Positions 27,349 to 59,809 of a stretch of DNA of 64,000 nucleotides are shown piece by piece. The notes under the pieces were generated by a model. The model ran no database searches. It was not told the origin of the DNA and saw only the letters and a program-made list of their open reading frames with translations. The DNA is from Escherichia coli. Lineage in GTDB: Bacteria > Pseudomonadota > Gammaproteobacteria > Enterobacterales > Enterobacteriaceae. Every line of letters begins with the position of its first letter. Position 1 is the stretch's first letter. The DNA lies in NCBI RefSeq assembly GCF_003790525.1, contig NZ_CP033635.1; one strand, 5' to 3'. Made by a program: the position numbers and the translations under genes.

Positions 27349-28767
27349 TCAGACAACTTCCTCACCGTAACGCATAGTGCTGGTACGGTTGCGCCCATCT
27401 TTCTTCGAGCGATACAGACATGTATCGGCTTCGACCATCAATTTATTAAAGTCATCGGTCAGCGTTCGGTACGATGCGCAACCACTACCGACGCCAATAC
27501 TTACCGTGAGATAAAGCGTTTTTTGTTGCCAGGTGAACGGTTGCAGTTCAACGCCTTTACGGATTTTTTCCGCCATTAGCAGACCATCTACAGGATTCAC
27601 CGATGGCACTGCAACAGCAAATTCCTCGCCGCCCATTCGCGCCACCAGCCCCTTATCACCGACAATCTTCTGAATATGCTGGGCAAACACGCTTAACACT
27701 TTATCGCCACATTCATGTCCATAGTTATCGTTAATGCTTTTGAAATAGTCGATATCAAGCAGCATGACAGTCAGATGTTGTGTCTGTTTCAGCGATGGAC
27801 TTTTCAGCGCCTCATAAAGACCGGACCGTGAGTAAACCTGAGTCAGAAAATCAAAGTCGGCTCGCAGCGCAACTTGCTTCATTAGCGAATTGATCGCTGC
27901 CACGCTAAAAGAAACCATAATTGGGCATATCGCCATCGTGGCAATACCGAGACGTGCGGAGAACATTTCTGGAATGGAGAATGGCGAACCGACCGAGATA
28001 TCAATCACCGAATTTGCCACCAGTACGATTTCCACCGCACCGGTGACAAAGGTCAACAGACATGTTACCTGCGGCGTATAGCGCACTGCACACCAGATTA
28101 ATGCAGGGAGCGGAAACGCCAGACTCCCCGCTCCGCCAATGACTACCGAGGCAATAACCGACACAATAAGCGCGATAGCAGGCATCATCTGCTCTGCTTT
28201 AAAGCGCGGCAGTACTCCAGGAATTGCCAACGTCAGCATACAAGGCACGATCAACACGCCCGTTGAGAATTGCTCACTGAACCAGTCGGCAAGCAAAGGC
28301 CAGAAATCCAGACTATCAATACTGACCGAACCAATCGCCCCGACAATAGCGCATAATAATGCGGCAATCAGACAGTAATTAAATAGCCGTAAGGCACTTA
28401 CTGGCTCATACTTATTTTTCCCCAGACGCTTATCCCGCGCGACCAGTAAGGCGACGGTAACAATAAACATCATATTGGAGAAATTGATAGCCAGTGAAAC
28501 CAGCCCCCATTCGGTGGTTATGGCATCATAAACCAGCATCGCCACATAACTGATCGCATAGTAATGCAGTCGATTAAGCCAGACATAGCGGGCAAACACC
28601 CCCGCCATTACGCCATTCAGCGGCCAGAAAAGAGAAAGTTCGTGAACCAGCCGTAACTCTGCACCAATAAAATAGAACAGCGTGGTTAGCACAAAAATAG
28701 CGATGCTATTACGTAGCAGATGACCTTCCTGGAACAAACGGAAAGTTGAAATGGGCTGTACATGCAT
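27349..28767 (-). CDS. dgcF: Membrane-anchored diguanylate cyclase (GGDEF domain)
   Basis: 472-aa ORF: N-terminal polytopic membrane domain plus GGDEF domain with RMGGEEF active-site motif. Confidence 0.8.
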   Translation of the reverse strand: MHVQPISTFRLFQEGHLLRNSIAIFVLTTLFYFIGAELRLVHELSLFWPLNGVMAGVFARYVWLNRLHYYAISYVAMLVYDAITTEWGLVSLAINFSNMMFIVTVALLVARDKRLGKNKYEPVSALRLFNYCLIAALLCAIVGAIGSVSIDSLDFWPLLADWFSEQFSTGVLIVPCMLTLAIPGVLPRFKAEQMMPAIALIVSVIASVVIGGAGSLAFPLPALIWCAVRYTPQVTCLLTFVTGAVEIVLVANSVIDISVGSPFSIPEMFSARLGIATMAICPIMVSFSVAAINSLMKQVALRADFDFLTQVYSRSGLYEALKSPSLKQTQHLTVMLLDIDYFKSINDNYGHECGDKVLSVFAQHIQKIVGDKGLVARMGGEEFAVAVPSVNPVDGLLMAEKIRKGVELQPFTWQQKTLYLTVSIGVGSGCASYRTLTDDFNKLMVEADTCLYRSKKDGRNRTSTMRYGEEVV

Positions 28768-28905
28768 TAATTATCTGTCCATACAATTGCGGGTGGCAAT
28801 TATCTCAACGCAATAAGTAAATTCTTAGAAAGGATAGCATGTTCGCTGACAACGGCGGCAACTAAAGATACCTAATGAATGCCATTTTATCGATTTCCGT
28901 AATTA

Positions 28906-32702: not shown

Positions 32703-33819
32703 ATGGTTACGCCAGTAAGCATCAGCAATTACATATCTCTTCCTGATGATTTTCCCGTACGTAATATTGCACCGCAGGTAAAAGAAGTTTTAAAGGATTT
32801 CATTGATGCACTTAGTACAATAATATGTGATGAAGAATGGCGCACGTCTTTAAACATCAACTCAGCCACAAAAAAGATATTTAATAACCTTGACAACTTA
32901 TCATATATTCAGAGGACTTCTTTTCGGGGGTAACGACACGCTATACAATGAAAAGGTTCAGTTTAAACTCACTTATCCCGTCAAGAATGGAAGACACAAA
33001 GAAAATATTGAATTTCAGGTAGTAATAAATTTAAGCCCTATTTATTTAGATAATTTCCGCCATGATGGGGAAATTAATATTTTTTGCGCTCCCAACCCAA
33101 AGCCTGTCACTATGGGGCGCGTATTTCAGACCGGCGTCGAGCGTGTGCTCTTTCTTTTTCTGAATGACTTTATAGAACAATTTCCAATAATCAACCCTGG
33201 CGTTCCTATCAAAAGAGCGCATACGCCACATATTGAACCCCTGCATCCGGATCACCATACCGCTGCAGATTACATACGCCAGTTTGATTTGCTTGTCCTG
33301 AATTTTATCTCTCGCGGTAATTTTGTCATACTCCCCCGATTATGGAATAACTCTGAGGTTCACAGATGGTTCGGGAATAAAGAACCTAACTTGCTCACCG
33401 CTATTCTCGACATAACGGACAGCGAATTAAAAGAGGATTTATTGCAAAGTCTGATGGATTCACTAGGTTCTAACAAACATGTACTACCCGAAGTCTGCAT
33501 CTGCTTTTTATCCCTTTTAGCAGAACAAGATTTTCCACATTTTCAGGAGTTGTTTTTATTTTTCGCCAATATGTTATTGCACTATCACCAATTTATGAAT
33601 CCCAATGAAAGTGATTTGATTGACGTGTTGATGCCAGCATCATTAAGTGATGATAAAATTATCAAACATATGGCGCGCAAGACCCTCAAACTTTTTGTAA
33701 AAAATGAAACGCCGCCAAAAGTTACTCATGAAGACCTGGTGAAAAACAGGCCTCGCTCCCCTGTCAGACCACCTATACCCGCAACTGCCAAAACGCCAGA
33801 CCTCCCTGAACGTCATTAA
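32703..33819 (+). pseudogene. yneK: yneK interrupted by a +1 frameshift in a G5 run (32926-32930)
   Basis: Two overlapping track ORFs (32703-32933 and 32890-33819); removing one G joins them into a single 371-codon frame; AT-rich gene. Confidence 0.6.
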
Positions 33820-37149: not shown

Positions 37150-37205
37150 TTATTGTCAGGCTCTGATCACAGAGCCTGACATCTCCGTAATATCTTTTTG
37201 AAGTC

Positions 37206-40346
<3,141 letters not shown>

Positions 40347-40398
40347 TTATCCTTAAGAGTGTAATAATTTCCTCCAGCTATCGCACTGGAGGAAAAAA

Positions 40399-40716
40399 TC
40401 AGGCATGGAGCTCTTTTCTTAATGAAATGATTTCCCTGGCTAAATCCTGGCATAATATTGCATTCATCAAATGATCCTGTGCATGTACCAGAATGAGATT
40501 AACTTTTATTTTGCCACAGCCTTCATCCTGACTAATTAACGCGGTCTGAATCTTATGCGCCTGAAGACAGGCGGATTCAGAACTGGCCATTAGCTGAGTT
40601 GCGCCCTGCCAGTCTTTTTGCCCGGCACAACGTATGGCTTCCATCGCATCAGAACGGGCCTGTCCTGCGTTGACCAGTAACTCCATAACAAGTTCTTCAT
40701 CTGCAAACATCAACAT
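40399..40716 (-). CDS. PTS lactose/cellobiose-family EIIA component
   Basis: 105-aa ORF with conserved His motif (LVHAQDHLM) typical of ChbA-type EIIA. Confidence 0.8.
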   Translation of the reverse strand: MLMFADEELVMELLVNAGQARSDAMEAIRCAGQKDWQGATQLMASSESACLQAHKIQTALISQDEGCGKIKVNLILVHAQDHLMNAILCQDLAREIISLRKELHA

Positions 40717-40737
40717 CTCCTTCCTGTGTAAATGGCA

Positions 40738-42060
40738 TTATCCGTTAGTTGTTAAGTTATTGACCTTGTTGGCGGCAATAACAAAAGGTAAATAGATCAT
40801 TGTCGCCACACCTAAACATAAAAAACCCACCAGTAACGCCAGCCAGTTTCCCCCGGTTCCGAGGAAAGCAATTAAAGGTCCGGGCGTAGTCCAGGGCACG
40901 GCATAAGCAACCGGTGGAATAATTTCCATCGAAACAAAGAAGTAACCAATGGCACAGTTAACAATAGGAACCATAATAAACGGCACCATCATGATGGGGT
41001 TAAGTACAATAGGAAGGCCGAACATTATCGGTTCATTGATATTGAAAATACCGGGGATAAATGACATTTTTGCCAGATCACGGTATTCCGCACGCTTAGA
41101 AGCGATAAAAATAGCCAACAATAACCCCAACGTCATACCTGAACCGCCGCAGTTGGCGAATGCATCATTAATAGAAGTCCAGGTAATCGGATATGGCGCG
41201 CCCCAGGTAGTGCCGTGTTGAGCGGCCCAGGAGAGATTCTCCAGATTAGCCTCAGAAAAAACAGTTTCTCGAATTGCCGAGGTGGTATTAGGTCCGTGGA
41301 TCCCCAGCACCCACAGGAAATTACCCACAGCCCCCAGGATAATTACCGCAAAGATATTCGTTCCCATATGTTTGAGCGGCGTCTGGATTAATGTGTAAAT
41401 GAGGTCGTTTAATCCTGCCGGGGATATCAGTGTCAGGCAATAATTAAGTGCGGAAAAGAACACCATGACAAAAAATATTGGCAATAAAACTTTAAATGAA
41501 CGCGCTACCGCAGGAGGTACAGCTGCCGGCATCGTGATGGTGATTTTGGGGTTTCGAGCTAAGCGACAAAATATTTCACTGGTGATCAGTGCAACGATAA
41601 CAGCAACAAATAACCCCTGCGCGCCGAGATATTTGGTCGTCAGGAATGCTTGCCCATCTATCATCTGATATGGCGTATATACAATAAAAAATGCTCCTAT
41701 TGCCGTTAATCCGCATAAAAGATCATCTTGCTCATAGCTAATCGCCATATTCCTGGCGACCAGGAAAGCAATCATAATTGACATGATATTTACAGAACCA
41801 TTCATTACCGGAGTAAAAATAGCTTGTGCTTTTTCAAGGTTGGGGAAAACGCTGTTCAGATGCAGCAGCCCGGCAATAAAGCCGTCGGGCGATAATATGG
41901 CAAAGTTAATTAATATAATTAATGAGCTTGCCATGATAATTGGAAACGTAAAAACGAATCCATCTCTCACCGCTGCAACATGTTTTTGTGAGTTTAACTT
42001 GATAGCAACTGGAACAAGAAAACGTTCCATTCCACGTTCGAATGAGGCCATTAATCCCAT
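40738..42060 (-). CDS. PTS lactose/cellobiose-family EIIC permease
   Basis: 440-aa polytopic membrane ORF, ChbC/CelB-like. Confidence 0.8.
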   Translation of the reverse strand: MGLMASFERGMERFLVPVAIKLNSQKHVAAVRDGFVFTFPIIMASSLIILINFAILSPDGFIAGLLHLNSVFPNLEKAQAIFTPVMNGSVNIMSIMIAFLVARNMAISYEQDDLLCGLTAIGAFFIVYTPYQMIDGQAFLTTKYLGAQGLFVAVIVALITSEIFCRLARNPKITITMPAAVPPAVARSFKVLLPIFFVMVFFSALNYCLTLISPAGLNDLIYTLIQTPLKHMGTNIFAVIILGAVGNFLWVLGIHGPNTTSAIRETVFSEANLENLSWAAQHGTTWGAPYPITWTSINDAFANCGGSGMTLGLLLAIFIASKRAEYRDLAKMSFIPGIFNINEPIMFGLPIVLNPIMMVPFIMVPIVNCAIGYFFVSMEIIPPVAYAVPWTTPGPLIAFLGTGGNWLALLVGFLCLGVATMIYLPFVIAANKVNNLTTNG

Positions 42061-42173
42061 TTTTTATACCTGTTGTTTTGGATATTTATACATCCCAATA
42101 AAGCATGTATGCCATATCCATTTTATGATGTGTGAAAAGTTAGTTCAGGTAATAGTTTAATAAAATTAGATTC

Positions 42174-42485
42174 TTACTGTTGCAGTAGTTTCATCGCAAA
42201 TTCAAGAACTGCCTGTCCGTTCATGGTGCCATAGTCTTTCATCTCGATAACAGCTACAGGCATTTTCCCCTGTGCAACAGCTTCAATCTCTGGTTTCTGA
42301 AAGCGAACTTGCGGGCCAAGTAAAACAACGTCAACTTCGTTATTTTTAATTTTCCCTTTAGCCTCTGCAATCGCCAATGCGGAAATATTAACTTCAAGTG
42401 AAATAGCGTTAGCATGATCAATCATACGTTTAACCAGCATACTGGTTGACATGCCCGCAGCGCAAACTAACAATATCTTTTTCAT
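42174..42485 (-). CDS. PTS lactose/cellobiose-family EIIB component
   Basis: 103-aa ORF with N-terminal active-site Cys motif (LLVCAAGMSTS). Confidence 0.8.
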   Translation of the reverse strand: MKKILLVCAAGMSTSMLVKRMIDHANAISLEVNISALAIAEAKGKIKNNEVDVVLLGPQVRFQKPEIEAVAQGKMPVAVIEMKDYGTMNGQAVLEFAMKLLQQ

Positions 42486-42683
42486 ATTTTCCCTTACTGG
42501 TATATAACAGATTACATTGTGTAAATATCATATCCCGCAGTAGCTATACGTCCTGGTACATTGATCACAGTAATACAGCACTAAAGTTGTTCAACATCAG
42601 GGTGATAATTAAACGACTCGGCCATAGGATAAACCAATCAGGACTCAACTCCTTGTTTTCAATGGCTCTTAAAAGGTGCAAAA

Positions 42684-43382
42684 GTGATTTTTCAAAAGAT
42701 TGCCCGCTTACTTAAATCCGAGATCAATGGCTATTCATGGCATGTTGGTGATTTGTTGCCGTCAGAAGCTGAACTCGCTGTTCGTTATAATGTTTCGCGT
42801 AATACCCTGCGTAAGGCATTATCCTTGCTGGAAGGCGAAGGAATTATTCATAGAAAGCATGGTTCAGGAACATACATTCAAAAAAAGAATTTTGTTGCAC
42901 ACATTGATCACATGAACAGTTTCAGTGAAATTGCGCATAAAAGCGGCAAAGAGGCAGGGAGTCAGATTATGAAATTTGAAGTGCAGGATGCTTCTCCCCC
43001 TATTGCGACTGAGCTGAATTTAGTGACTGGTGAGCAGGTTTATTACATAAAGAGACTGCGATTCATTGAGGATAATGCAGCACAATTAGAAGAAACGTGG
43101 ATGTCAGTGGCACGTTTTCCTGATTTAACCGTAGCACATATGCAAAAATCCAAATTTTCGTATATTGAGAACGAATGCGGGATCAAAATCATTGGCACCT
43201 TTGAAACTTTCTCCCCGACTTTTCCTACCCCAGAAATCGCCAGTATTTTACGGATCAGCCCACGGGATCCCATACTTAAAATTCAGACCCAGGCTGTGGA
43301 CAGTAACTCTATTCCGCTGGATTATTCGTTACTTTACAGCAATATTTTCGAGTTCCAGGTAAAGTACTTTTTCCCGCGATAA
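42684..43382 (+). CDS. GntR/HutC-family transcriptional regulator (UTRA effector domain)
   Basis: 232-codon ORF from GTG with N-terminal GntR HTH (ELAVRYNVSRNTLRKAL); divergent from the PTS genes. Confidence 0.75.
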   Translation: MIFQKIARLLKSEINGYSWHVGDLLPSEAELAVRYNVSRNTLRKALSLLEGEGIIHRKHGSGTYIQKKNFVAHIDHMNSFSEIAHKSGKEAGSQIMKFEVQDASPPIATELNLVTGEQVYYIKRLRFIEDNAAQLEETWMSVARFPDLTVAHMQKSKFSYIENECGIKIIGTFETFSPTFPTPEIASILRISPRDPILKIQTQAVDSNSIPLDYSLLYSNIFEFQVKYFFPR

Positions 43383-43426
43383 AAGCAGACGCACAGAGTG
43401 CTGGCATCACATTCTGTGCGTATGGT

Positions 43427-44326
43427 TTAGCCTCTAACCTTTACCGCTTTACGCCACCGCAAGCCAAATACATTGATATACAGCCCGGTCATAATGAGCA
43501 CCGCACCGAAAAATTGCAGGCCCGTTAAGCGTTCATCCAGCAATAGTGCCGCACTTGCCAGTCCAACTACAGGCACCAGTAACGATAACGGTGCAACCCG
43601 CCAGGTTTCATAGCGTCCCAGTAACGTCCCCCAGATCCCATAACCAACAATTGTCGCCACAAACGCCAGATACATCAGAGACAAGATGGTGGTCATATCG
43701 ATAGTAACCAGACTGTGAATCATGGTTGCGGAACCATCGAGAATCAGCGAGGCAACAAAGAAGGGAATGATTGGGATTAATGCGCTCCAGATTACCAGCG
43801 ACATCACCGCCGGACGCGTTGCGTGCGACATGATCTTTTTATTGAAGATGTTGCCACACGCCCAACTAAATGCTGCCGCCAGGGTCAACATAAAGCCGAG
43901 CATCGCCACATGCTGACCGTTCAGACTATCTTCGATTAACACCAGTACGCCAAAAATCGCTAAGGCGATCCCCGCCAATTGTTTGCCATGCAGTCGCTCC
44001 CCGAAAGTAAACGCGCCAAGCACGATAGTAAAAAACGCCTGTGCCTGTAACACCAGCGAAGCCAGTCCAGCAGGCATACCAAAGTTAATGGCGCAGAACA
44101 GAAAGGCAAACTGCGCAAAACTGATGGTTAATCCATACCCCAGCAGCAAATTCAGTGGTACTTTCGGTCGTGCGACAAAAAAGATAGCCGGAAAAGCAAC
44201 CAGCATAAAGCGCAAACCGGCCAACATCAGCGGTGGCATGTTATGAAGCCCCACTTTGATGACCACAAAATTTAGCCCCCATACGACCACTACCAGTAGC
44301 GCCAACACCCCATCTTTTCGCGACAT
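43427..44326 (-). CDS. eamA: Cysteine/O-acetylserine exporter (DMT family)
   Basis: 299 aa from internal ATG (MSRKDGVLALLVVVVWGLNF...); 10 TM DMT transporter. Confidence 0.85.
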   Translation of the reverse strand: MSRKDGVLALLVVVVWGLNFVVIKVGLHNMPPLMLAGLRFMLVAFPAIFFVARPKVPLNLLLGYGLTISFAQFAFLFCAINFGMPAGLASLVLQAQAFFTIVLGAFTFGERLHGKQLAGIALAIFGVLVLIEDSLNGQHVAMLGFMLTLAAAFSWACGNIFNKKIMSHATRPAVMSLVIWSALIPIIPFFVASLILDGSATMIHSLVTIDMTTILSLMYLAFVATIVGYGIWGTLLGRYETWRVAPLSLLVPVVGLASAALLLDERLTGLQFFGAVLIMTGLYINVFGLRWRKAVKVRG

Positions 44327-47901: not shown

Positions 47902-48003
47902 CGGAAGAGTATACAAAAAAGTAATTTTGCTGGCGACTGCGAAACGGCATTCGCATTAGCGGTGAAGTTTGCCCTCGCCCAGCTGCTGCAATTACTGCTA
48001 TAA
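47902..48003 (+). pseudogene. ydeJ: Possible 3' remnant of ydeJ (CinA C-terminal-domain family)
   Basis: Short open frame ...AGDCETAFALAVKFALAQLLQLLL* ending convergent to dcp, where K-12 has a full ydeJ; preceded by an in-frame stop and AT-rich sequence. Confidence 0.35.
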
Positions 48004-48047
48004 CGAGGCTGGTCTGGCGATAAATCCAGGCCAGCCATTGGTGGTGT

Positions 48048-50093
48048 TTATACGTTCAAGCCACGATGTTGCAGCATCGGCATAATCTGAGGTGCCTTAC
48101 CGCGCCATTGTCGATACAGGCGTTCCAGATCCTCGCTGTTACCTCTGGAAAGGATCGCCTCGCGAAAACGCAGCCCATTTTCACGCGTTAATCCGCCCTG
48201 CTCAACAAACCACTGATAACCATCATCGGCCAACATTTGCGTCCACAGATAAGCGTAATAACCCGCGGCATATCCGCCACCAAAAATATGGGCGAAATAA
48301 CTGCTGCGATAGCGTGGCGGTATAGCGGGAAGATCCATATTTTCCGCCACCAGCGCCCGCAATTCAAAATCATCGACATCCTGCATTGCTTCGTTTTCTT
48401 CCAGGCAATGCCAGCGCATATCGAGAAGTGCGGCGCTAAGCAGTTCGCTCATCTCATACCCTTTGTTGAACAGGCTGGCATTACGCATTTTCTGTTGCAG
48501 TTCGTCAGGCATTGCTGCCCCGCTCTGATAATGCCGGGCGTAGCGAGCGAATACCTGCGGATGTGTTGCCCAGTGTTCGTTGATTTGCGACGGAAATTCG
48601 ACAAAATCACGCGGCGTGTTGGTGCCGGAAAGCGTGGCATAACGCTGGCGGGCAAAAAGGCCGTGCAGCGTATGACCAAATTCATGGAATAAGGTTATTA
48701 CATCATCCCAGAGTAACAACGCAGGCTCACCGGCAGCGGGTTTCTGATAATTGCAGACGTTATAAATTACCGGATGCGTTTCATTAAGCGTTGATTGCTC
48801 AACAAAATTGCCCATCCATGCACCGCCGCTTTTTGAATCACGGGCGAAGAAATCACCGTAAAATAACGCCAGCCCCACGCCATTATGATCAAAAATTTCC
48901 CACACCCGAACGTCAGGATGGTAGACAGGAATATCAAAACGTTCGACAAACTTAATACCGAAGAGCTGATTCGCGGTCCAGAATACACCTTCATTCAACA
49001 CCGTGTTTAATTCAAAATATGGCTTGAGCTGCGATTCATCGAGATCGAATTTCTCACGTCTTACCTGCTCGGCATAAAATGCCCAGTCCCACGGCTGCGC
49101 GCTAAACCCGCCCTGCTGCTTATCAATAATCGCCTGTATGGAGGCTAACTCATCGCTCGCACGTTGACGCGCCGCTGGAACAATTTCCCGCATAAAGTTG
49201 AGCGCTGCTTCTGGCGTTTTTGCCATCTGATCGGCGATTTTCCATGCGGCATAATGAGGAAAACCAAGCAGTTTCGCCTGCTGCGCGCGGATCTCCACCA
49301 GACGTTGAATGATAGCGCGGGTGTCATTGGCATCATTTTTTTCCGCTCGCATCCAGCCCGCAGTAAACAGTTTTTCACGCGTCGCGCGATCGCACAGTTC
49401 AGCAAGCGCTGGTTGTTGGGTGGTATTCAGCAGCGGAATCAGCCATTTGTTATACAGACCTTTCTCGCGAGCCGCCTCTGCCGCCAGCACAATCTCTTGC
49501 TCACTCATTCCTGCCAGCTGCGCGATATCGTTCACAACCAGACCGCCGGATTTATTTGCTGCCAGTAACCGCTGGTTAAACTGGCTGGTCAGGGTCGCAG
49601 CTTCTGTATTCAGTACTTTTAATTTTGCTTTATCAGCTTGCTTAAGTTTGGCTCCGGCAAGGACAAAACGTTGATGAATCACCTCCACCAGGCGGATGGA
49701 TTCACTATCAAGCCCCAGGGATTCACGGCGCTGCCAGACAGCATCTACCCGCGCGAATAATTCCCCGTTCAGATAGATATCATTCGCAAGTTCCGCCAGT
49801 TCAGCGGAAAACTGTTCATCAAGACGCTGTAATTCATCATTGGTATGCGCCGCAGTCATCGCAAAAAAGACGCTGGTAACGCGGGTAAGTAATTCTCCGC
49901 TTTGTTCCAGTGCCAGAATAGTATTGTTGAAATCAGGTGTTTGCGGGTTAAGCGCGATGGCAGCAATTTCTGCCCGCTTTTGCTGCATTCCCTCATCGAA
50001 TGCCGGGCGATAGTGATGATTGGCAATTTGATCAAAATGGGGAGCCAGATACGGCAGTGTGCTTTGCACAAGGAAAGGATTCATTGTTGTCAT
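48048..50093 (-). CDS. dcp: Dipeptidyl carboxypeptidase II (M3 metallopeptidase)
   Basis: 681 aa from internal ATG (MTTMNPFLVQ...); HEFGH zinc motif present. Confidence 0.9.
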   Translation of the reverse strand: MTTMNPFLVQSTLPYLAPHFDQIANHHYRPAFDEGMQQKRAEIAAIALNPQTPDFNNTILALEQSGELLTRVTSVFFAMTAAHTNDELQRLDEQFSAELAELANDIYLNGELFARVDAVWQRRESLGLDSESIRLVEVIHQRFVLAGAKLKQADKAKLKVLNTEAATLTSQFNQRLLAANKSGGLVVNDIAQLAGMSEQEIVLAAEAAREKGLYNKWLIPLLNTTQQPALAELCDRATREKLFTAGWMRAEKNDANDTRAIIQRLVEIRAQQAKLLGFPHYAAWKIADQMAKTPEAALNFMREIVPAARQRASDELASIQAIIDKQQGGFSAQPWDWAFYAEQVRREKFDLDESQLKPYFELNTVLNEGVFWTANQLFGIKFVERFDIPVYHPDVRVWEIFDHNGVGLALFYGDFFARDSKSGGAWMGNFVEQSTLNETHPVIYNVCNYQKPAAGEPALLLWDDVITLFHEFGHTLHGLFARQRYATLSGTNTPRDFVEFPSQINEHWATHPQVFARYARHYQSGAAMPDELQQKMRNASLFNKGYEMSELLSAALLDMRWHCLEENEAMQDVDDFELRALVAENMDLPAIPPRYRSSYFAHIFGGGYAAGYYAYLWTQMLADDGYQWFVEQGGLTRENGLRFREAILSRGNSEDLERLYRQWRGKAPQIMPMLQHRGLNV

Positions 50094-50229
50094 TTTCTTC
50101 TCCTGAACGCGAGGTGTTCCATAGCGTAGGCTTACTGATAACGGAGTGCAATCTTGCAAACCAGTATTACCCGCTCTTAAGCATCACGTGCTATGTTATT
50201 GACACACAAAAGCGTTGAGGAACAGTGAG

Positions 50230-50976
50230 ATGATCGTTTTAGTAACTGGAGCAACGGCAGGTTTTGGTGAATGCATTACTCGTCGTTTTATTCAACAAGG
50301 GCATAAAGTTATCGCCACTGGCCGTCGCCAGGAGCGGTTGCAGGAGTTAAAAGACGAACTGGGAGATAATCTGTATATCGCCCAACTGGACGTTCGCAAC
50401 CGCGCCGCTATTGAAGAGATGCTGGCATCGCTTCCTGCCGAGTGGTGCAATATTGATATCCTGGTAAATAATGCCGGTCTGGCGTTGGGCATGGAGCCTG
50501 CGCATAAAGCCAGCGTTGAAGACTGGGAAACGATGATTGATACCAACAACAAAGGCCTGGTATATATGACGCGCGCCGTCTTACCGGGTATGGTTGAACG
50601 TAATTATGGTCATATTATTAACATTGGCTCAACGGCAGGCAGCTGGCCGTATGCCGGTGGTAACGTTTACGGTGCGACGAAAGCGTTTGTTCGTCAGTTT
50701 AGCCTGAATCTGCGTACGGACCTGCATGGTACGGCGGTGCGCGTCACCGACATCGAACCGGGTCTGGTGGGTGGCACCGAGTTTTCCAATGTCCGCTTTA
50801 AAGGCGATGACGGTAAAGCGGAAAAAACCTATCAAAATACCGTTGCATTGACGCCAGAAGATGTCAGCGAAGCCGTCTGGTGGGTGTCAACGCTGCCTGC
50901 TCACGTCAATATCAATACCCTGGAAATGATGCCGGTTACCCAAAGCTATGCCGGACTGAATGTCCACCGTCAGTAA
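50230..50976 (+). CDS. ydfG: NADP-dependent 3-hydroxy acid / serine dehydrogenase (SDR)
   Basis: 248 aa from ATG at 50230 (MIVLVTGATAGFGE...), SDR cofactor motif. Confidence 0.85.
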   Translation: MIVLVTGATAGFGECITRRFIQQGHKVIATGRRQERLQELKDELGDNLYIAQLDVRNRAAIEEMLASLPAEWCNIDILVNNAGLALGMEPAHKASVEDWETMIDTNNKGLVYMTRAVLPGMVERNYGHIINIGSTAGSWPYAGGNVYGATKAFVRQFSLNLRTDLHGTAVRVTDIEPGLVGGTEFSNVRFKGDDGKAEKTYQNTVALTPEDVSEAVWWVSTLPAHVNINTLEMMPVTQSYAGLNVHRQ

Positions 50977-51064
50977 TTTTTATACCCGGCGTAACTGCCG
51001 GGTTATTGCTTGTCACAAAAAAGTGGTAGACTCATGCAGTTAACTCACTCACAAGCAAGAACGA

Positions 51065-51751
51065 ATGACCGTCGAAACGCAACTTAATCCCACACAGCCT
51101 GTCAATCAGCAGATTTATCGTATTCTTCGTCGCGACATTGTCCATTGCCTGATTGCTCCAGGCACACCGTTGTCGGAAAAAGAAGTTTCTGTTCGTTTCA
51201 ATGTGTCACGCCAGCCGGTTCGTGAAGCCTTTATTAAACTGGCGGAAAACGGCCTGATTCAAATTCGTCCGCAGCGTGGCAGCTACGTCAACAAAATTTC
51301 CATGGCCCAGGTGCGCAACGGCAGTTTTATCCGTCAGGCCATTGAGTGCGCGGTGGCGCGTCGGGCGGCGAGCATGATTACCGAAAGCCAGTGCTACCAA
51401 CTGGAACAAAATCTTCACCAGCAACGCATTGCCATTGAGCGCAAGCAACTGGATGATTTTTTTGAACTTGATGACAACTTCCATCAACTCCTGACCCAGA
51501 TTGCCGACTGTCAACTGGCGTGGGATACCATTGAGAACCTGAAAGCGACCGTTGATCGCGTGCGCTATATGAGTTTCGACCACGTTTCTCCACCAGAAAT
51601 GCTGTTACGCCAGCATCTTGAGATTTTCTCTGCCCTGCAAAAACGTGATGGCGATGCGGTAGAACGTGCAATGACGCAACATTTGCAGGAAATCAGCGAA
51701 TCCGTGCGCCAGATCCGTCAGGAAAACAGCGACTGGTTTAGCGAAGAGTAA
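51065..51751 (+). CDS. rspR: GntR/FadR-family regulator
   Basis: 228-aa ORF with N-terminal GntR HTH and FCD domain. Confidence 0.8.
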
Positions 51752-51832
51752 TTCATTTCCTCTCATCCCATCCGGGGTGAGAGTTTTTCCCTCCGTCATA
51801 TGGCTCATGCATGCATCAAAAAAGATGTGAGC

Positions 51833-51846
51833 TTGATCAAAAACAA
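51833..51846. promoter_or_regulatory. Candidate FNR site TTGAT-CAAA-AACAA upstream of ydfZ
   Basis: 9/10 match to TTGAT-N4-ATCAA about 90 bp upstream of ydfZ. Confidence 0.35.
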
Positions 51847-51927
51847 AAAATATTTCACTCGACAGGAGTATTTATATTGCGCCCGTTACGTGGGCTTCGA
51901 CTGTAAATCAGAAAGGAGAAAACACCT

Positions 51928-52131
51928 ATGACGACCTACGATCGTAACCGTAACGCAATCACCACTGGCAGCCGTGTTATGGTTAGCGGCACCGGTCACA
52001 CTGGCAAGATCCTGTCGATTGATACTGAAGGTCTGACCGCTGAGCAAATCCGTCGCGGAAAAACCGTAGTTGTTGAAGGTTGTGAAGAGAAACTGGCACC
52101 TCTGGACCTGATTCGTCTCGGCATGAACTAA
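51928..52131 (+). CDS. ydfZ: Small selenium-binding protein YdfZ
   Basis: 67-aa ORF with strong RBS (GGAG). Confidence 0.8.
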
Positions 52132-52139
52132 GCGTGTGA

Positions 52140-52168
52140 ATGCCGCCGATGGCGGCATTGCTTTTTTT
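52140..52168 (+). terminator. Rho-independent terminator after ydfZ
   Basis: ATGCCGCC-gat-GGCGGCAT stem followed by TGCTTTTTTT. Confidence 0.75.
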
Positions 52169-53627
52169 ACTTCACGGAATATTTCGCCACGGTCGCTTTC
52201 GCACCATGCGCTAATAAAGACAAGTACGCTTCCGTCACTTTTGCAGTAAACAAGCTATTGTCTGGCAAATCATCACCAAAGATCGCCTTAATCGCCAGCA
52301 ATGACTGGACGCGCGCTTTCCCTTCGGCACTACTTTGTACAGCCTTCTGAATAACAGGTAACAGTGGATCACTGATTTCAATCGGATTTCCCTGTTCATC
52401 AACACCACCGACATAGCGCATCCAACCCGCGACGCCCAGCGCCAGCAGATCGAACTTGCTGTCATGCGCCAGATGCCAGCGAACAGAATCCAACATCCGC
52501 TGTGGCAATTTCTGGCTGCCATCCATCGCAATCTGCCAGGTTCGGTGACGTAGCGCCGGGTTGCTATAGCGTTCAATTAATCGGTTAGCGTAATCTTGCA
52601 AATCAACGCCCTGCACTTTCAACGTCGGCGCTTGTTCCTGCAACATCAAGGCATACGCTGCATGACGATAATGTTCATCTTCCATGCAGTCATTAATGTG
52701 CTGATATCCGGCAAGATAACCCAGATACGCCAGGAATGAATGACTGCCGTTGAGCATGCGCAACTTCATCTCTTCATAAGGCAGCACATCACTAACCAGT
52801 TCGGCTCCCGCTTTTTCCCATTCCGGACGTCCGGCAACAAAGTTATCTTCTATTACCCACTGGCGGAAAGGTTCACAGGCAACGCCAGCAGGATCGCGCA
52901 CACCGGTAAGTTGTTCGATTTTCGCCAGCGTATCCTCTGTCACTGCGGGCACAATACGGTCCACCATTGTTGATGGGAAAGTCACGTTTTCTTCGATCCA
53001 TTGTGCCAGTTTTACATCAACAGCTTGCGCGTAGGAAGTGACAACGTCACGCATAACATGACCGTTTTCTGGCATGTTGTCACATGACATGACGGTAAAT
53101 GCGGGAAGTCCTGCCGCTTTACGGCGAGCCAGCGCCTCGACAATCACCCCTGTTGCAGTTTTCGGCTGGTGGGGATTTTGTACGTCGGCAACGACCATCG
53201 GGTGATCGAGCATTAACTGTCCGGTCGCCGGAGAGTGGAAATACCCTTTTTCGGTGATTGTCAGAGAGACAATCGCGATTTGCGGTTCACACATCGCAGC
53301 CAACACGGTTTCTAAGCCATCAATCTGTACGTGCAAGGCTTTTTTAACGACGCCAACGACGCGAGCCGTCCACGCATCGGCCGACATTTCCGCAACGGTA
53401 TAAAGATTATCTTGCTGTTGTAAATCGGCAATTTGCTGTTCGCCGCCGATTAAATTGACCTCATAATATCCCCAGTCACTGAAATGTTCCGTAGCAAGAA
53501 TATCGGCATACACACCCTGATGCGCACGGTGAAATGCACCAAAGCCTAAATGAACAATTCTTGGGGCCAGGTTATTACGATCATAAACAGGGAGCGTCGC
53601 TTTTGCTGATAACAAATTATTTCCCAT
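52167..53627 (-). CDS. ydfI: Mannitol dehydrogenase-family oxidoreductase
   Basis: 486-aa ORF, long-chain polyol dehydrogenase family. Confidence 0.85.
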
Positions 53628-53715
53628 AACAATTCCTTAAATATAAATATGGCAAGCTACATGTTTTGTTATATGAATAAAAATCCCCTCTCCGGTAAGA
53701 GAAGGGATGGAGGAT

Positions 53716-55083
53716 TTAAAGACTTCTGGAAGGTTGCGCAGCTCTGACAACATGCGGTTGATCTTCCGCAGCGTCTTCCAGCGCACTTAAATCACGGTCT
53801 TTCACTTCTGGCATTTTCAGCGCAGAAATTAAACCAATCACTGAATATGCCATGATCATAATTGCGATCGGATACCAGGATTCCGTCATGGTGCAGAAAA
53901 TACCCGCCAGGATAGGACCAAAACCGGAAGCGATAAGACCACCAATTTCTTTAGAAATGGCCATCCGGGTAAAGCGGTTTTTACAGCCGAACATTTCTGC
54001 CATGGTAATGTTTTCCAGAGCAAATAATCCCAGCACCGCACAGTTATGAATCACAATCAGTGCAACCATAATGGTGCTCGGGGCATAGCTTTTATCTACG
54101 ATGATAGAAAGCATTGGCCATGCCAGCACAATCGCAGAGGTATTCATAATAATATACGGGATCCGGCGACCAATTTTATCGGATAACCAACCAAGGAACG
54201 GAATGGTCATAAAGCCGAGAATCGAACTGATCATCAATGCATCTGTTGGAATTGCTTTGTTAAACAATAACGTCTGCACTAAATAGCCTGCAAGGAAAGT
54301 CTGAATTAAACCTGAGTTACCAGCCTGACCAAAACGCAGCCCTGTTGCCAGCCAGAAGGATTTGCTCTGGAACATGCTACCAGCAGGTGCAGGTTTTGCT
54401 GTAGGTTGGTTGCTGTCGTTAACCTTCTCAAAGACCGGGCTTTCTTTCAGATTCATACGCAACCAGATAGCAAAGACCATCACGACAACGCTCGCCAGGA
54501 ACGGTATACGCCATCCCCACGCCAACAGTTCCTCTTTACTGAGAATGAAGAACATAAAGGCCCAGATTGCCGTTGCGCTCAAGGTTCCGCAGTTAGTCCC
54601 CATAGCAACAAATGAGGAGATAATTCCGCGCTTACCTTTTGGCGCATATTCCGCCAGCATCGTACCGGCACCGGAAATTTCCGCGCCTGCCCCCAGCCCC
54701 TGAATAATACGCAGCGTCACCAGCAAAATTGGCGCAAACACACCAATTTGTGCATAGGTCGGCAGCACACCAATTAAGGTGGTACAGATCCCCATCATAG
54801 TTATGGTAATAAAGAGCACTTTTTTACGCCCGATTCTGTCGCCCATTTTGCCGAAAATAAATGCTCCGACAATACGCGCCACATAACCTGCACCGTAGGT
54901 TCCCATTGCCAGAATTAACGCCATTGCCGTTGATGATTCAGGAAAAAATATTTCATGAAACACTAACGCTGCGCCGAGCGAATATAACTGGAAATCCATA
55001 AATTCAAGCGCAGTGCCCAGCCATCCCGATACTGCTGCTTTCACCAAATCCTTAGTGCTTCTTTCGTGTTTTTCTATTGTCAT
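53716..55083 (-). CDS. ydfJ: MFS metabolite:H+ symporter, apparently intact
   Basis: 455-aa uninterrupted ORF with 12 TM segments; rspB follows 57 bp upstream. Confidence 0.8.
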   Translation of the reverse strand: MTIEKHERSTKDLVKAAVSGWLGTALEFMDFQLYSLGAALVFHEIFFPESSTAMALILAMGTYGAGYVARIVGAFIFGKMGDRIGRKKVLFITITMMGICTTLIGVLPTYAQIGVFAPILLVTLRIIQGLGAGAEISGAGTMLAEYAPKGKRGIISSFVAMGTNCGTLSATAIWAFMFFILSKEELLAWGWRIPFLASVVVMVFAIWLRMNLKESPVFEKVNDSNQPTAKPAPAGSMFQSKSFWLATGLRFGQAGNSGLIQTFLAGYLVQTLLFNKAIPTDALMISSILGFMTIPFLGWLSDKIGRRIPYIIMNTSAIVLAWPMLSIIVDKSYAPSTIMVALIVIHNCAVLGLFALENITMAEMFGCKNRFTRMAISKEIGGLIASGFGPILAGIFCTMTESWYPIAIMIMAYSVIGLISALKMPEVKDRDLSALEDAAEDQPHVVRAAQPSRSL

Positions 55084-55140
55084 AATGGTTATCTCTAAAA
55101 AAGAGGTAAGATGCGTACTACTTACTCGCCGTTATTGGTA

Positions 55141-56160
55141 TTATTCAGAAAAAGTGAGTAAGACTTTGCAGCAATGCTTTTGATCCTGTTCAAATAAACT
55201 AATGGCATCAGCAACATGCTGGAAATCAAACGTATGGGTAATTAGTTTTTCTGGTTTAATTAACCCTTTACTTAACCAGTCGATAACGACCGGGAATTTA
55301 TTTGCATTTAAGCGTGAAGAGAAAATAGAGAGTTCTTTTCCGGTAATTCCTTGCTGAATCACTTCAGACGGTTCACTGGAGAAGCCCATCAATACAATAC
55401 GTGCCGCTGGAGAAGCCAGCGTTACGGCTTCTTTCAGGATTGAAGGATGACAAGCCGCATCGATAATTAATGTCGGCTTGATGCCTTTTTCAGCGAAACT
55501 CTCGCTAAGCGGTGTCTGGCTGTTATTAATCGCCCAGTCTGCCCCGCTCTCTTTCGCTTTTTCCAGTCGTTCATCAATGCGATCGGCAACAATCACATTC
55601 TTAACGTTATAGACGCCTTTTAATACCTGAACGATCGTCAGGCCGATTGGACCTGCACCGTAAACCAGAACGGTATCATTTTCAGTCGGTTGACCATGAC
55701 CGGTAACGTTAGCCGCAATGGTAAAAGGTTCAATCATCACCGCATATTGATCGGCCACTGCTTCAGGAATTTTCCACGCATTTTTTGCCGGCACCACGGC
55801 ATATTCACTGAAACCACCGTCAGCGTGCACACCTAATACAGCCAGTGTCGTACAAACGTTCGGCTTACCTATAGAGCACGGATAGCAATGCCCACAGCTG
55901 ACCACCGGATCGACAGCAACGCGTTCACCGACTCTGTCGCTTTCCACGCCTTCACCCACTGCATCAATGACGCCAAAGAATTCATGTCCAATGACGCGCG
56001 GATATTTCGCAAAAGGATTATGCCCACGATAAATATGGCTATCTGAACCACAAATTCCGGCAAGTTTCACTTTTACTCGTACTTCACCCGCTGACGGGGT
56101 GGGTATTTCGCGTTCGATAATTGCCAGTTGATTCGGTTTTTCAATTAAAATGCTTTTCAT
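55141..56160 (-). CDS. rspB: Zn-dependent alcohol dehydrogenase-family starvation-sensing protein
   Basis: 339 aa from internal ATG (MKSILIEKPNQ...); GHE and Cys-ligand motifs. Confidence 0.85.
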   Translation of the reverse strand: MKSILIEKPNQLAIIEREIPTPSAGEVRVKVKLAGICGSDSHIYRGHNPFAKYPRVIGHEFFGVIDAVGEGVESDRVGERVAVDPVVSCGHCYPCSIGKPNVCTTLAVLGVHADGGFSEYAVVPAKNAWKIPEAVADQYAVMIEPFTIAANVTGHGQPTENDTVLVYGAGPIGLTIVQVLKGVYNVKNVIVADRIDERLEKAKESGADWAINNSQTPLSESFAEKGIKPTLIIDAACHPSILKEAVTLASPAARIVLMGFSSEPSEVIQQGITGKELSIFSSRLNANKFPVVIDWLSKGLIKPEKLITHTFDFQHVADAISLFEQDQKHCCKVLLTFSE

Positions 56161-56171
56161 TATCTTACTCC

Positions 56172-57386
56172 TTACCAGTTCCACAGCGTGCCATCTTCCA
56201 GACGTGCGACTGGCAGATAAGCAGGTTCATAGGGATATTTCGCCGCCAGCTTTTCATCGAATTCGATGCCAAGACCCGGTTTGTCTCCCGGATGCATATA
56301 GCCGTTATCGAAAGTCCAGTTGTGCGGGAAGACTTCAAGCATTTGTTCGGAATAACCCATGTATTCCTGGACACCGAAATTGGGGACCCACAGATCAAAG
56401 TGCAGCGCCGCAGCCATGCAGACTGGCGACAAATCGGAAGGACCGTGTGAGCCAGTACGTACCTGATACAGCGAAGCAAAATCGGCAATCCGGCGCATAC
56501 CGGTAATCCCCCCCGCGTGAGTCAGCGTGGTGCGGATATAGTCGATGAGTTGTTCTTCAATCAGCTGTTTGCAGTCCCAGATGCTGTTGAAGACTTCACC
56601 CACTGCAATTGGCGTGACGGTGTGTTGGCGAATCAGGCGGAAACACTCCTGGTTTTCCGCAGGCGTCGGGTCTTCCATCCAGAACATGCGATAATCTTCA
56701 ATGCTTTTACCAAAGCGCGCCGCTTCAATAGGCGTTAAGCGATGGTGCATGTCATGAAGCAAATGTTCATTAAAACCAAACTTGTTACGTACCGCGTCAA
56801 ACAATTTCGGCATGAAATCGAGGTATTTCTCCGTCGACCACAGCTGCTCTTCCGGCCACTGTCCTTTGGTTGCGGGTTCATAAGCCAGACCTTTACCTTT
56901 CGACATGCCATAGGTGGTTTTCATACCAGGGATTCCGCACTGCACGCGGATGGCTTTGAATCCCAGCTCCTGATGACGGGCATAATCATCCAGAGCTTCA
57001 TCAATACTGTGACCGGTGGTATGGCAATAAACCATCACCCCTTCACGAGACGCGCCGCCGAGTAACTGGTAAAGCGGCATGTCGGCAGCTTTGGCTTTAA
57101 TATCCCACAGCGCCATATCAACCGCTGAAATGGCCGACATCGTAACCGGACCGCGACGCCAGTAAGCACCTTTATAGAAAAACTGCCAGATATCTTCGAT
57201 ACGGTGTGCATCGCGACCAATAAGCTGCGGACAAAGGTGATCCTGCAAATAAGAGGCCACGGAAAGCTCACGTCCATTTAGGGTGGCATCCCCAAGGCCC
57301 GTAATACCGTCCTCAGTGGTGATTTTTAATGTGACGAAATTACGCCCCGGACAGGTAACAAAAACTTCAGCCTTTACGATCTTCAT
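56172..57386 (-). CDS. rspA: Enolase-superfamily mannonate dehydratase-like starvation-sensing protein
   Basis: 404 aa from internal ATG ([10 protein letters not shown]...); 11 bp upstream of rspB. Confidence 0.85.
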
Positions 57387-57483
57387 GTTCGATTCCTTGC
57401 ATCGCTTGTCGTGATGCATGAAATTTACGCAACTGAGCTACTACCATACAAGTATGAAGATCAAAAAAAGCCGGAGTGATCAC

Positions 57484-57506
57484 AAAAAAAGGCGTATATT
57501 TGCGCC
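57484..57506 (-). terminator. Rho-independent terminator downstream of ynfA
   Basis: Minus strand GGCGCAAATATACGCC followed by T7. Confidence 0.5.
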
Positions 57507-57591
57507 GTGAATGGTTGACAAAAGATGAAATAGAATACCTTTTGTCAGCTGACACTTCCTCGTATCTTATTGATAAAATGAATTTATGTTC

Positions 57592-57918
57592 CTACGTGCG
57601 CCCCCAGCCCGCTACAATGATCAACATGCCGCAAAGCGCAATCAACGCCCCCGTCCAGTCATAAAGACTCAGTTTCACGCCATCCACAACGCGTAGCCAA
57701 ATCAACGCCGTGCAGACATAAACGCCACCATAAGCCGCGTAAACACGCCCACTCGCCGCAGGATGCAACGTTAACAACCAGACAAACAGCGCCAGTGAAA
57801 TCCCTGCCGGAAGCAACAGCCAGATACTGGCGTTTCGCTTCAACCACAGCCAGGGCAAAAAGCACCCAATAATTTCACACAGCGCAGTAGCAAAAAATAG
57901 TAACGTTGTTTTAATCAT
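57592..57918 (-). CDS. ynfA: UPF0060 small membrane protein
   Basis: 108 aa from internal ATG ([13 protein letters not shown]...), 4 TM segments. Confidence 0.8.
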
Positions 57919-58052
57919 CTTTGTCACTTATTGACATCATGTATAGTTATAGGACGACATAATATCAGCAATATAAACACCCTCCTTGAACGTTTTGCGT
58001 TCGCAGTGGATGGTGTAGAATCAGCTTTAATCATTCATACAGGGAATGAATT

Positions 58053-58394
58053 ATGAAAATCACTCTCAGCAAACGAATCGGCCTGCTCGCTTTTCTGCTG
58101 CCTTGCGCACTGGCATTGAGCACAACTGTTCATGCCGAAACTAACAAACTGGTGATTGAGTCTGGCGACAGTGCACAAAGCCGCCAGCACGCCGCTATGG
58201 AAAAAGAGCAATGGAATGACACGCGCAATCTGCGCCAGAAAGTGAATAAACGCACTGAAAAAGAGTGGGATAAAGCCGACGCCGCTTTTGATAACCGCGA
58301 TAAATGTGAGCAAAGCGCCAACATCAATGCCTACTGGGAGCCAAATACTTTGCGCTGCCTGGACCGTCGAACTGGTCGCGTTATTACCCCCTAA
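58053..58394 (+). CDS. ynfB: Secreted protein of unknown function
   Basis: 113-aa ORF with signal peptide. Confidence 0.8.
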
Positions 58395-58428
58395 CCTGTT
58401 ATTGATTTAAGGAATGTAAGGACACGTT

Positions 58429-58989
58429 ATGCCAAGCGCCCACAGTGTTAAGCTACGCCCGCTGGAGCGTGAAGATTTACGCTATGTACATCAACTCGAC
58501 AATAACGCCAGTGTGATGCGTTACTGGTTTGAGGAACCCTACGAAGCCTTTGTTGAACTCTCTGATCTGTACGATAAGCATATTCACGATCAGAGCGAAC
58601 GGCGCTTTGTGGTGGAATGTGACGGCGAAAAAGCCGGTCTGGTGGAGCTGGTGGAAATTAACCATGTTCATCGCCGCGCAGAATTTCAGATAATTATCTC
58701 CCCGGAATATCAGGGGAAAGGTCTGGCAACGCGTGCCGCAAAATTAGCAATGGACTATGGCTTCACCGTTCTCAATCTCTATAAGCTGTATCTGATCGTC
58801 GATAAAGAGAATGAAAAAGCGATTCACATTTACCGCAAGCTTGGCTTTACGGTTGAAGGTGAATTGATGCATGAGTTCTTTATTAATGGTCAATATCGGA
58901 ATGCCATTCGTATGTGCATATTCCAGCATCAGTATCTGGCAGAGCACAAAACACCGGGTCAGACTCTCCTGAAGCCGACCGCACAATAG
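58429..58989 (+). CDS. speG: Spermidine N1-acetyltransferase
   Basis: 186-aa GNAT-family ORF. Confidence 0.9.
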
Positions 58990-58991
58990 CA

Positions 58992-59702
58992 TTAATAATA
59001 ATCGATAGTATTTTTGATGGTGTAAACCCGTTCGACGGCGGGTTTTACTCCTTCATCAACAATGATTAGCTGACAGTCTACCGGATTGGCGTGACTGTCA
59101 TATTCACAGCTCTGTTTTACATTACCAACCCGTTGATTATTCAGTAAAGTAACCGCGGTGTAATCTAATTTTTTGATCGGATCCGTTGATGGCGTGGCGC
59201 TGACAGATAATGTTTTGTCGTTACTTTTCGTAGTTTTACCCAGCGGATACCCCTGATCATCATAGCGATATTCCATCTGCATCTGTTTGCTGCTGGCTTT
59301 AATCACAAAGCCATTATCATCGGTTTCCCAACTCACCCCGGCAGAAGGTAATTCTGCTAGCTGGCATTTTCCCTGCAAACGAACTCTTTTCTCCAGTGTC
59401 TGGGCATCACGGTAATAATTGGCGTCCAGTACCAGGGCAACCACGGTATTATTTTCCAGATCCAGTAATTCGAGAGAATCAAAACAGCCTTCTTCCGACA
59501 AAGTCCCCGAAACACGTTTCGTCACTTCACCTTGCTCATCCATTAATGTCTGAGTGAAATCTTTTACGGGACCACGCAGCGGATCAAAATCGAATTCATT
59601 AGAGAAACTGGCCATCTCCGGGGTAAATGAAAGTGTTACCTCTGTGCGGTCACATCCTGTGAGGAATATCGCGAGTAAGCATGGCAGTAATTTGTATTTC
59701 AC
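58992..59702 (-). CDS. ynfC: Lipoprotein YnfC
   Basis: 236 codons from GTG (VKYKLLPCLLAIFLTGC lipobox). Confidence 0.75.
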   Translation of the reverse strand: MKYKLLPCLLAIFLTGCDRTEVTLSFTPEMASFSNEFDFDPLRGPVKDFTQTLMDEQGEVTKRVSGTLSEEGCFDSLELLDLENNTVVALVLDANYYRDAQTLEKRVRLQGKCQLAELPSAGVSWETDDNGFVIKASSKQMQMEYRYDDQGYPLGKTTKSNDKTLSVSATPSTDPIKKLDYTAVTLLNNQRVGNVKQSCEYDSHANPVDCQLIIVDEGVKPAVERVYTIKNTIDYY

Positions 59703-59809
59703 AACAGTCACCTGAGAGTAGAGATGATTCTCAATCATAGTAGCAAATACAGTACTTTACACGTTAAATGCTATGCTTAAAGAAGTTATCTTCGCGTAAG
59801 GAGCTTATG

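Follow-up and report, generated by a model that had tools for sequence, protein, structure and literature searches.

The uninterrupted ydfJ-rspB region of a non-K-12 Escherichia coli strain and its predicted attB for Qin-type lambdoid prophages

Genes of the ydfJ-rspAB neighbourhood

The DNA analysed here, referred to as the window, is a 64,000-nucleotide stretch of E. coli sequence. The list of open reading frames of the window includes a 455-amino-acid (aa), ATG-started ydfJ (53716 to 55083, minus strand) and, on the same strand, an rspB ORF that ends, stop codon included, at 55141. The start codon of ydfJ and the stop codon of rspB are separated by a 57-bp spacer (55084 to 55140). These coordinates bear out the original prediction that ydfJ is a full 455-codon ORF located 57 bp from rspB. 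This is a statement of gene adjacency, and therefore no chance statistic applies to it. The names ydfI, ydfJ (MHS family MFS transporter), rspB, and rspA were taken from the RefSeq annotation of 100%-identical genomes.

RspB (55141 to 56160, minus strand; 339 aa) is a Zn-dependent oxidoreductase that scored 694 bits against the NF007489 equivalog model (cut-off, 376); its nearest named relatives include L-idonate 5-dehydrogenase, which it matched below the cut-off of that model. The adjacent rspA (56172 to 57386, minus strand; 404 aa) encodes an enolase-superfamily homologue of D-mannonate dehydratase (ManD), with a score of 743.6 against 550 for the NF043051 ManD equivalog. On the other side of ydfJ, ydfI (52167 to 53627, minus strand; 486 aa) encodes a protein of the mannitol dehydrogenase/fructuronate reductase family (NF011611; 652 bits against 603), and rspR, also known as ydfH (51065 to 51751, plus strand), is annotated as the GntR-family repressor of rspAB (PMC8249747). 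All parts of a mannonate-type cluster are thus present, i.e., a ManD-type dehydratase, a Zn-dependent dehydrogenase, a fructuronate-reductase-type enzyme, and a nearby GntR repressor. The rspR/ydfI/ydfJ/rspB/rspA sugar-acid cluster is contiguous and uninterrupted in the window, where rspR is located 4.4 kb from rspAB, compared to about 26 kb in K-12. Judging from these protein families, the substrate of the cluster would be a sugar acid. Work by Wichelecki and colleagues in 2014 is said to have linked ManD-type dehydratases to L-gulonate catabolism. A paper that cites this work (PMC5507952) places the L-gulonate pathway in Chromohalobacter salexigens, and we make no claim for L-gulonate as the substrate in E. 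coli.

A consensus scan of the spacer (55084 to 55140) revealed no promoter-like or terminator-like site, and the predicted RNA fold of the 57 bp was no better than that of shuffled sequences (z = -0.10). No Rfam family was detected within 53000 to 58000, and the repeats found around the integration site described below were short and at chance level. Directly after the ydfJ stop codon, a terminator-like hairpin followed by a T-run (53683 to 53708, minus strand) was recognized by pattern match only, as an 11-pair stem and the sequence TTTTATT. In K-12, RspR represses rspAB, which gives a 2.3-kb transcript (PMC8249747). Because the spacer has no promoter or terminator consensus matches and a terminator-like hairpin follows ydfJ, this gene is probably co-transcribed with rspA and rspB as the third gene under RspR in strains in which the site is unoccupied.

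The att site in ydfJ and the absence of Qin genes

In the MG1655 record, the "cryptic prophage Qin" covers 1632277 to 1652745 (20.5 kb) and lies inside ydfJ. It is flanked by ydfJ (b1543, 427 aa) on one side and by ynfP (b4534, 36 aa), followed by rspB and rspA, on the other. This annotation agrees with the original prediction that in K-12 the Qin prophage, with dicB/dicF, relBE, hokD, and other genes, separates ydfJ from rspB and disrupts ydfJ.

When the 35-kb K-12 locus was compared with the window by BLAST, exactly two alignments were obtained, both of them to chromosomal flanks. The left K-12 flank aligned to 47924 to 55006 and the right flank to 54988 to 62245, so that the two meet in the window with a 19-bp overlap, CTGGAAATCCATAAATTCA (54988 to 55006). 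With the junctions placed side by side, an exact 11-bp core, GAAATCCATAA, was seen at both ends of Qin in K-12 and once in the window (54991 to 55001). In the phage-derived arms, the sequence is CTTGAAATCCATAA-TTCA, 18 bp in length compared to the 19 bp of attB. In the ydfJ frame, the 19-bp block corresponds to nucleotides 78 to 96 and the core to nucleotides 83 to 93, in codons 28 to 31. The K-12 annotation fits this position: ynfP consists of YdfJ residues 1 to 31 followed by KSHAC, and the annotated K-12 YdfJ begins at Met29, the ATG of which is within the att core. The 19-mer is unique in the window even when up to three mismatches are allowed, and the flanks of the lysogen are contiguous in the window and overlap by the att sequence alone, as is characteristic of an attB. 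Taken together, the overlap of the K-12 flanks, the duplicated core, and the breakpoint shared with other lysogens (see below) make it almost certain that the attB used by Qin and its lambdoid relatives lies empty in the window, within the 5' part of ydfJ.

The same alignments bear on the possibility that the prophage integrates into the 57-bp spacer, which would place the K-12 Qin between two complete genes. On the K-12 map, Qin does separate most of ydfJ from rspB. However, the spacer is 100% identical (0 differences) to the ynfP-rspB gap of K-12 and still adjoins rspB there, the flanks meet 78 to 96 nucleotides inside ydfJ, and K-12 retains the 36-codon ydfJ stub ynfP beside rspB. This placement is therefore highly improbable and was rejected on the basis of the flank alignments and the spacer identity. 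Since the 55084 to 55140 sequence is identical in K-12, the gap does not tell the two strains apart, and we regard it as an rspB-ydfJ intergenic spacer rather than a prophage junction.

The original prediction had placed an unoccupied site at the ydfJ/rspB junction. The site is indeed empty and ydfJ is whole, but the location has to be corrected, as the core lies 83 to 93 nucleotides inside ydfJ and the gap is unchanged in K-12. Read literally, the prediction fails at this point, since alignment with the K-12 prophage showed that Qin is not inserted in 55084 to 55140; its biological conclusion stands. It was right in substance and mislocated the site by about 80 to 150 bp. For PCR or occupancy assays, the right target is the attB sequence and not the intergenic gap.

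In occupied strains, a tyrosine integrase of the IntQ type recombines the near-identical phage site (CTTGAAATCCATAA-TTCA) with the attB sequence. Integration splits ydfJ after codon 31; the other 427 codons are parted from rspAB, and the 36-codon stub ynfP stays beside rspB.

Two further lysogens have the same breakpoint. Beyond the breakpoint on the rspB side, strain MB06101 carries genes for an intact 426-aa integrase, an excisionase, and an exonuclease, as well as ydfD and dicB. Pfam assigned Arm-DNA-bind_2 and Phage_integrase domains to this integrase, and its residues 31 to 426 share 97% identity with the intQ remnant of K-12. In the O157:H7 strain 7636, the ydfJ side of the breakpoint is followed by the end of a lambdoid prophage encoding a DinI-like protein, three DUF1076-domain proteins, a tail-fibre protein, Lom, and J. 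The junctions of K-12, MB06101, and O157:H7 7636 are in register and share the breakpoint. The site in ydfJ thus acts as a true integrase target in lysogens, and the attB of the window is predicted to be competent for recombination. The three DUF1076-domain genes of the 7636 prophage (L005, 6286 to 12160) are located at its ydfJ-proximal end. In two O157:H7 genomes, a 301-bp query centred on attB matched one place only, which suggests that the rspB-side junction in these genomes is rearranged or displaced, in line with the ompW-ydfJ prophage inversions described in PMC8112680.

No Qin DNA was detected anywhere in the 64-kb window by blastn with the K-12 locus as the query. Similarly, tblastn searches gave no match in the window at an E value of 1e-3 or below for any of 34 Qin proteins of K-12 (RelB, RelE, HokD, DicA, DicB, and DicC among them) or for the integrase of MB06101. 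By these two methods, integrase, dicA/C/B/F, relBE, hokD, lysis, and tail-fibre genes were not found between ydfJ and rspB, and we conclude that there is no Qin prophage at the locus. The searches confirm the earlier proposal that prophage-borne toxin and division-inhibitor genes are missing here. Thus, this locus does not encode the Qin-borne functions studied in K-12, such as DicB/DicF division inhibition, RelBE, HokD, and the cold-shock paralogues.

As a proxy for Qin genes located elsewhere, a chimeric query composed of a 4-kb anchor from the window, K-12 hokD-relEB, and dicA-ydfD was searched against near-identical genomes. GN03551, GN03139, and e1-39 matched the anchor only, while SMS-3-5 had two extra places and TUM1586 had four. 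Carriage of Qin-type genes elsewhere in the genome thus varies within the lineage.

Site occupancy, near relatives, and other differences from K-12

The occupancy of the site was surveyed with the 301-bp query in 5,426 complete E. coli genomes, a site being counted as uninterrupted when one place covered at least 80% of the query. Matches were obtained in 5,373 of the 5,426 genomes. The site was uninterrupted, as in the window, in 2,008 genomes (37%) and interrupted in about 62%, where the median number of matching places per genome was two. The window therefore represents a minority state, yet a very common one. Among the interrupted genomes of a spread sample, the match broke off at query position 161 (window 55006) in 23 and started at position 146 (window 54991) in one, which means that all 24 readable breakpoints fell at 54991/55006; one genome in the sample kept the rspB end only.

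Among the matches listed for a 2.7-kb query across the region, about twenty complete E. coli genomes, including SMS-3-5, were 100% identical. Aligned along all 64 kb, the window and the bloodstream isolate GN03551 (NZ_CP147535.1) share 99.992% identity and differ by three substitutions and two single-base indels. SMS-3-5 has an insertion of roughly 1.3 kb within the region corresponding to window positions 1 to 25000. The window thus belongs to a non-K-12 lineage and is closest to GN03551 and SMS-3-5.

These numbers also speak to the suggestion that a prophage was collapsed in, or dropped from, the assembly of the source genome. Prophage regions contain many repeats, and misassembly can occur in them, but nothing more specific favours this explanation here. 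Against it, the same contiguous arrangement was found in the 2,008 complete genomes, GN03551 matches across the whole window, and the junction is exactly the expected attB, with ydfJ in frame. An assembly artefact is therefore hardly conceivable.

It is more plausible, although still unlikely, that the site was once occupied and that a Qin-like prophage was lost by precise excision mediated by integrase and excisionase. Prophages with intact int and xis genes exist at the site, as in MB06101, the majority of E. coli genomes are occupied, and a crossover within the exact 11-bp core would regenerate attB and leave no scar. However, no positive sign of such an event was seen, and the site is clean and uninterrupted in all of the listed near-identical relatives (among them SMS-3-5 and GN03551), in keeping with a lineage that is just devoid of the prophage. 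Because excision within the core leaves no scar, a site that was never lysogenized and one restored by precise excision look the same. No observation spoke against the reading of the site as an empty attB.

Several other segments of the window differ from K-12. The K-12 hipBA toxin-antitoxin module (1590914 to 1592522) is absent, and the K-12 flanks meet at about 9471 to 9474, between a fragment of an HTH regulator (8893 to 9159) and an autotransporter pseudogene (9694 to 14538); a second K-12 toxin system, besides those carried by Qin, is therefore missing from the window. The large autotransporter gene, a yneO homologue of the ECSE_1600 family, is annotated as a pseudogene without its C terminus in the nearest genome. 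In K-12, too, yneO is a pseudogene, and it contains another 481 bp that are absent from the window. Upstream, a 3.3-kb segment (5357 to 8637) that is deleted in K-12 contains the rest of a full-length fimbrial usher gene (4130 to 6781) and the genes for a chaperone (6823 to 7533) and a FimA-like major subunit (7896 to 8459). The ydeQRST fimbrial operon looks complete here, while K-12 ydeT is a truncated usher gene. The dgcF homologue (27349 to 28767) encodes a 472-aa diguanylate cyclase with a sensor domain, compared to the 315-aa product of K-12 dgcF, which lacks a 498-bp segment corresponding to window positions 28335 to 28832.

In yneK (32703 to 33819), the window has an extra G in the G-run at 32925 to 32930 compared with GN03551, and this splits the gene into ORFs of 76 and 309 aa. 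For a 4,000-nucleotide segment covering yneK, all of the 40 closest genomes listed either matched over 3,999 nucleotides or fewer or carried an IS insertion there. The extra G reflects either a genuine frameshift or a sequencing error in the homopolymer. Between marB and eamA, a 6.3-kb island (37152 to 43436) that is absent from K-12 encodes a 6-phospho-beta-glucosidase, a carbohydrate porin, PTS IIA/IIC/IIB components of the lactose/cellobiose family, and a GntR regulator. The ydeJ gene (K-12 1624734 to 1625212) has been deleted except for the last 80 nucleotides or so (47921 to 48003), a remnant that is oddly annotated as a "2-oxo-tetronate isomerase" fragment in the nearest genome. At 47921, the window also has a 1-nucleotide deletion compared with GN03551.

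Consequences for ydfJ and comparison with other integration sites

Because there is no integration here, ydfJ is predicted to encode a full 455-aa transporter of the MHS family. YdfJ scored 462.9 bits against TIGR00883 (cut-off, 443.45), with profile positions 1 to 400 aligned to residues 23 to 418, and was also matched by the Pfam families MFS_1 and Sugar_tr. Residues 29 to 455 differ from K-12 b1543 at a single position (H444R). A sequence search revealed no PDB chain matching YdfJ at an E value of 1e-10 or below, and YdfJ was instead aligned with its K-12 paralogues ProP, KgtP, and ShiA. In this alignment, G23, D30, F31, and Y34 are invariant, and the N-terminal MHS motif common to the three paralogues, G-x3-[ED]-[WF]-x-D-F-x2-Y, is present in YdfJ. 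The att core encodes F28-M29-D30-F31 and is thus located within the N-terminal signature of the MHS family. A protein starting at Met29 lacks G23, E27, and all preceding residues and, to judge from the position of the motif, would also lose the beginning of its first membrane helix. We infer that the function of YdfJ would be lost in occupied strains.

Literature searches on the substrate gave no data for YdfJ and nothing relevant to the E. coli gene. For the function of this gene, K-12 is the minority-informative state, and studies of YdfJ or of the structure of the rspAB operon would therefore be better conducted in a strain like the one described here.

A more speculative notion, to which we give little credence, is that prophage occupancy of ydfJ serves as a population-level on/off switch for sugar-acid uptake and catabolism by rspA-rspB-ydfJ and ydfI under RspR. 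If so, a working transporter would still be transcribed together with rspAB in unoccupied strains (37% of E. coli), whereas lysogens would lose the YdfJ transporter and could regain it through excision of those prophages that have intact int and xis genes. Such an arrangement would resemble the phage regulatory switch of comK in Listeria.

Much of what is described above has precedents. Insertion of Qin at the 5' end of ydfJ has been reported to cause promoter loss and a truncation of 28 codons, and among 638 strains, 48% had Qin at the ydfJ locus, its size varying between 11 and 97 kb (PMC6379469). Shimada et al. (2021) noted that rspR and rspAB of K-12 are parted by a 26-kb insertion that includes Qin and that some E. 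coli strains do not have the insertion (PMC8249747). For ydfJ prophages, Nakamura et al. (2021) described an "18- or 19-bp att sequence," with uninterrupted ydfJ as attB (PMC8112680). Every element of the empty-site finding is thus already in the literature; the finding is an ordinary strain difference and matters little beyond strain bookkeeping.

The e14 prophage, which integrates into icd, restores the coding end of its target. By contrast, the ydfJ prophages do not rebuild their target, which is cut off from its first 28 codons and from the transcription signals upstream (PMC6379469). Other intragenic sites of E. coli likewise combine a short target in a host gene with a tyrosine integrase, as do those of Stx and lambdoid phages in wrbA, yehV/mlrA, sbcB, and yecE, of e14 in icd, and of Rac in ttcA, and the occupancy of such sites varies between strains (PMC8309913, PMC6379469).

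The closest comparison is with the Qin (Kim) locus of K-12 MG1655 (b1543 to b1579; ynfP, b4534), which shares with the window its flanks (97.6% to 97.8% identical), the att core, and the 57-bp spacer. However, the prophage is absent from the window, together with dicB/dicF, relBE, hokD, cspB/F/I, and the other Qin genes, and a single 455-codon ydfJ takes the place of the 427-codon remainder and 36-codon ynfP of K-12. The attB of PPydfJ, located in the uninterrupted ydfJ of O104:H4 strain C227-11 (PMC8112680, S7 Fig), agrees with that of the window in length and position, the features compared. The identity block found in this study, 19 bp in attB and 18 bp in the phage-type sequence, likewise matches the published length of 18 or 19 bp.
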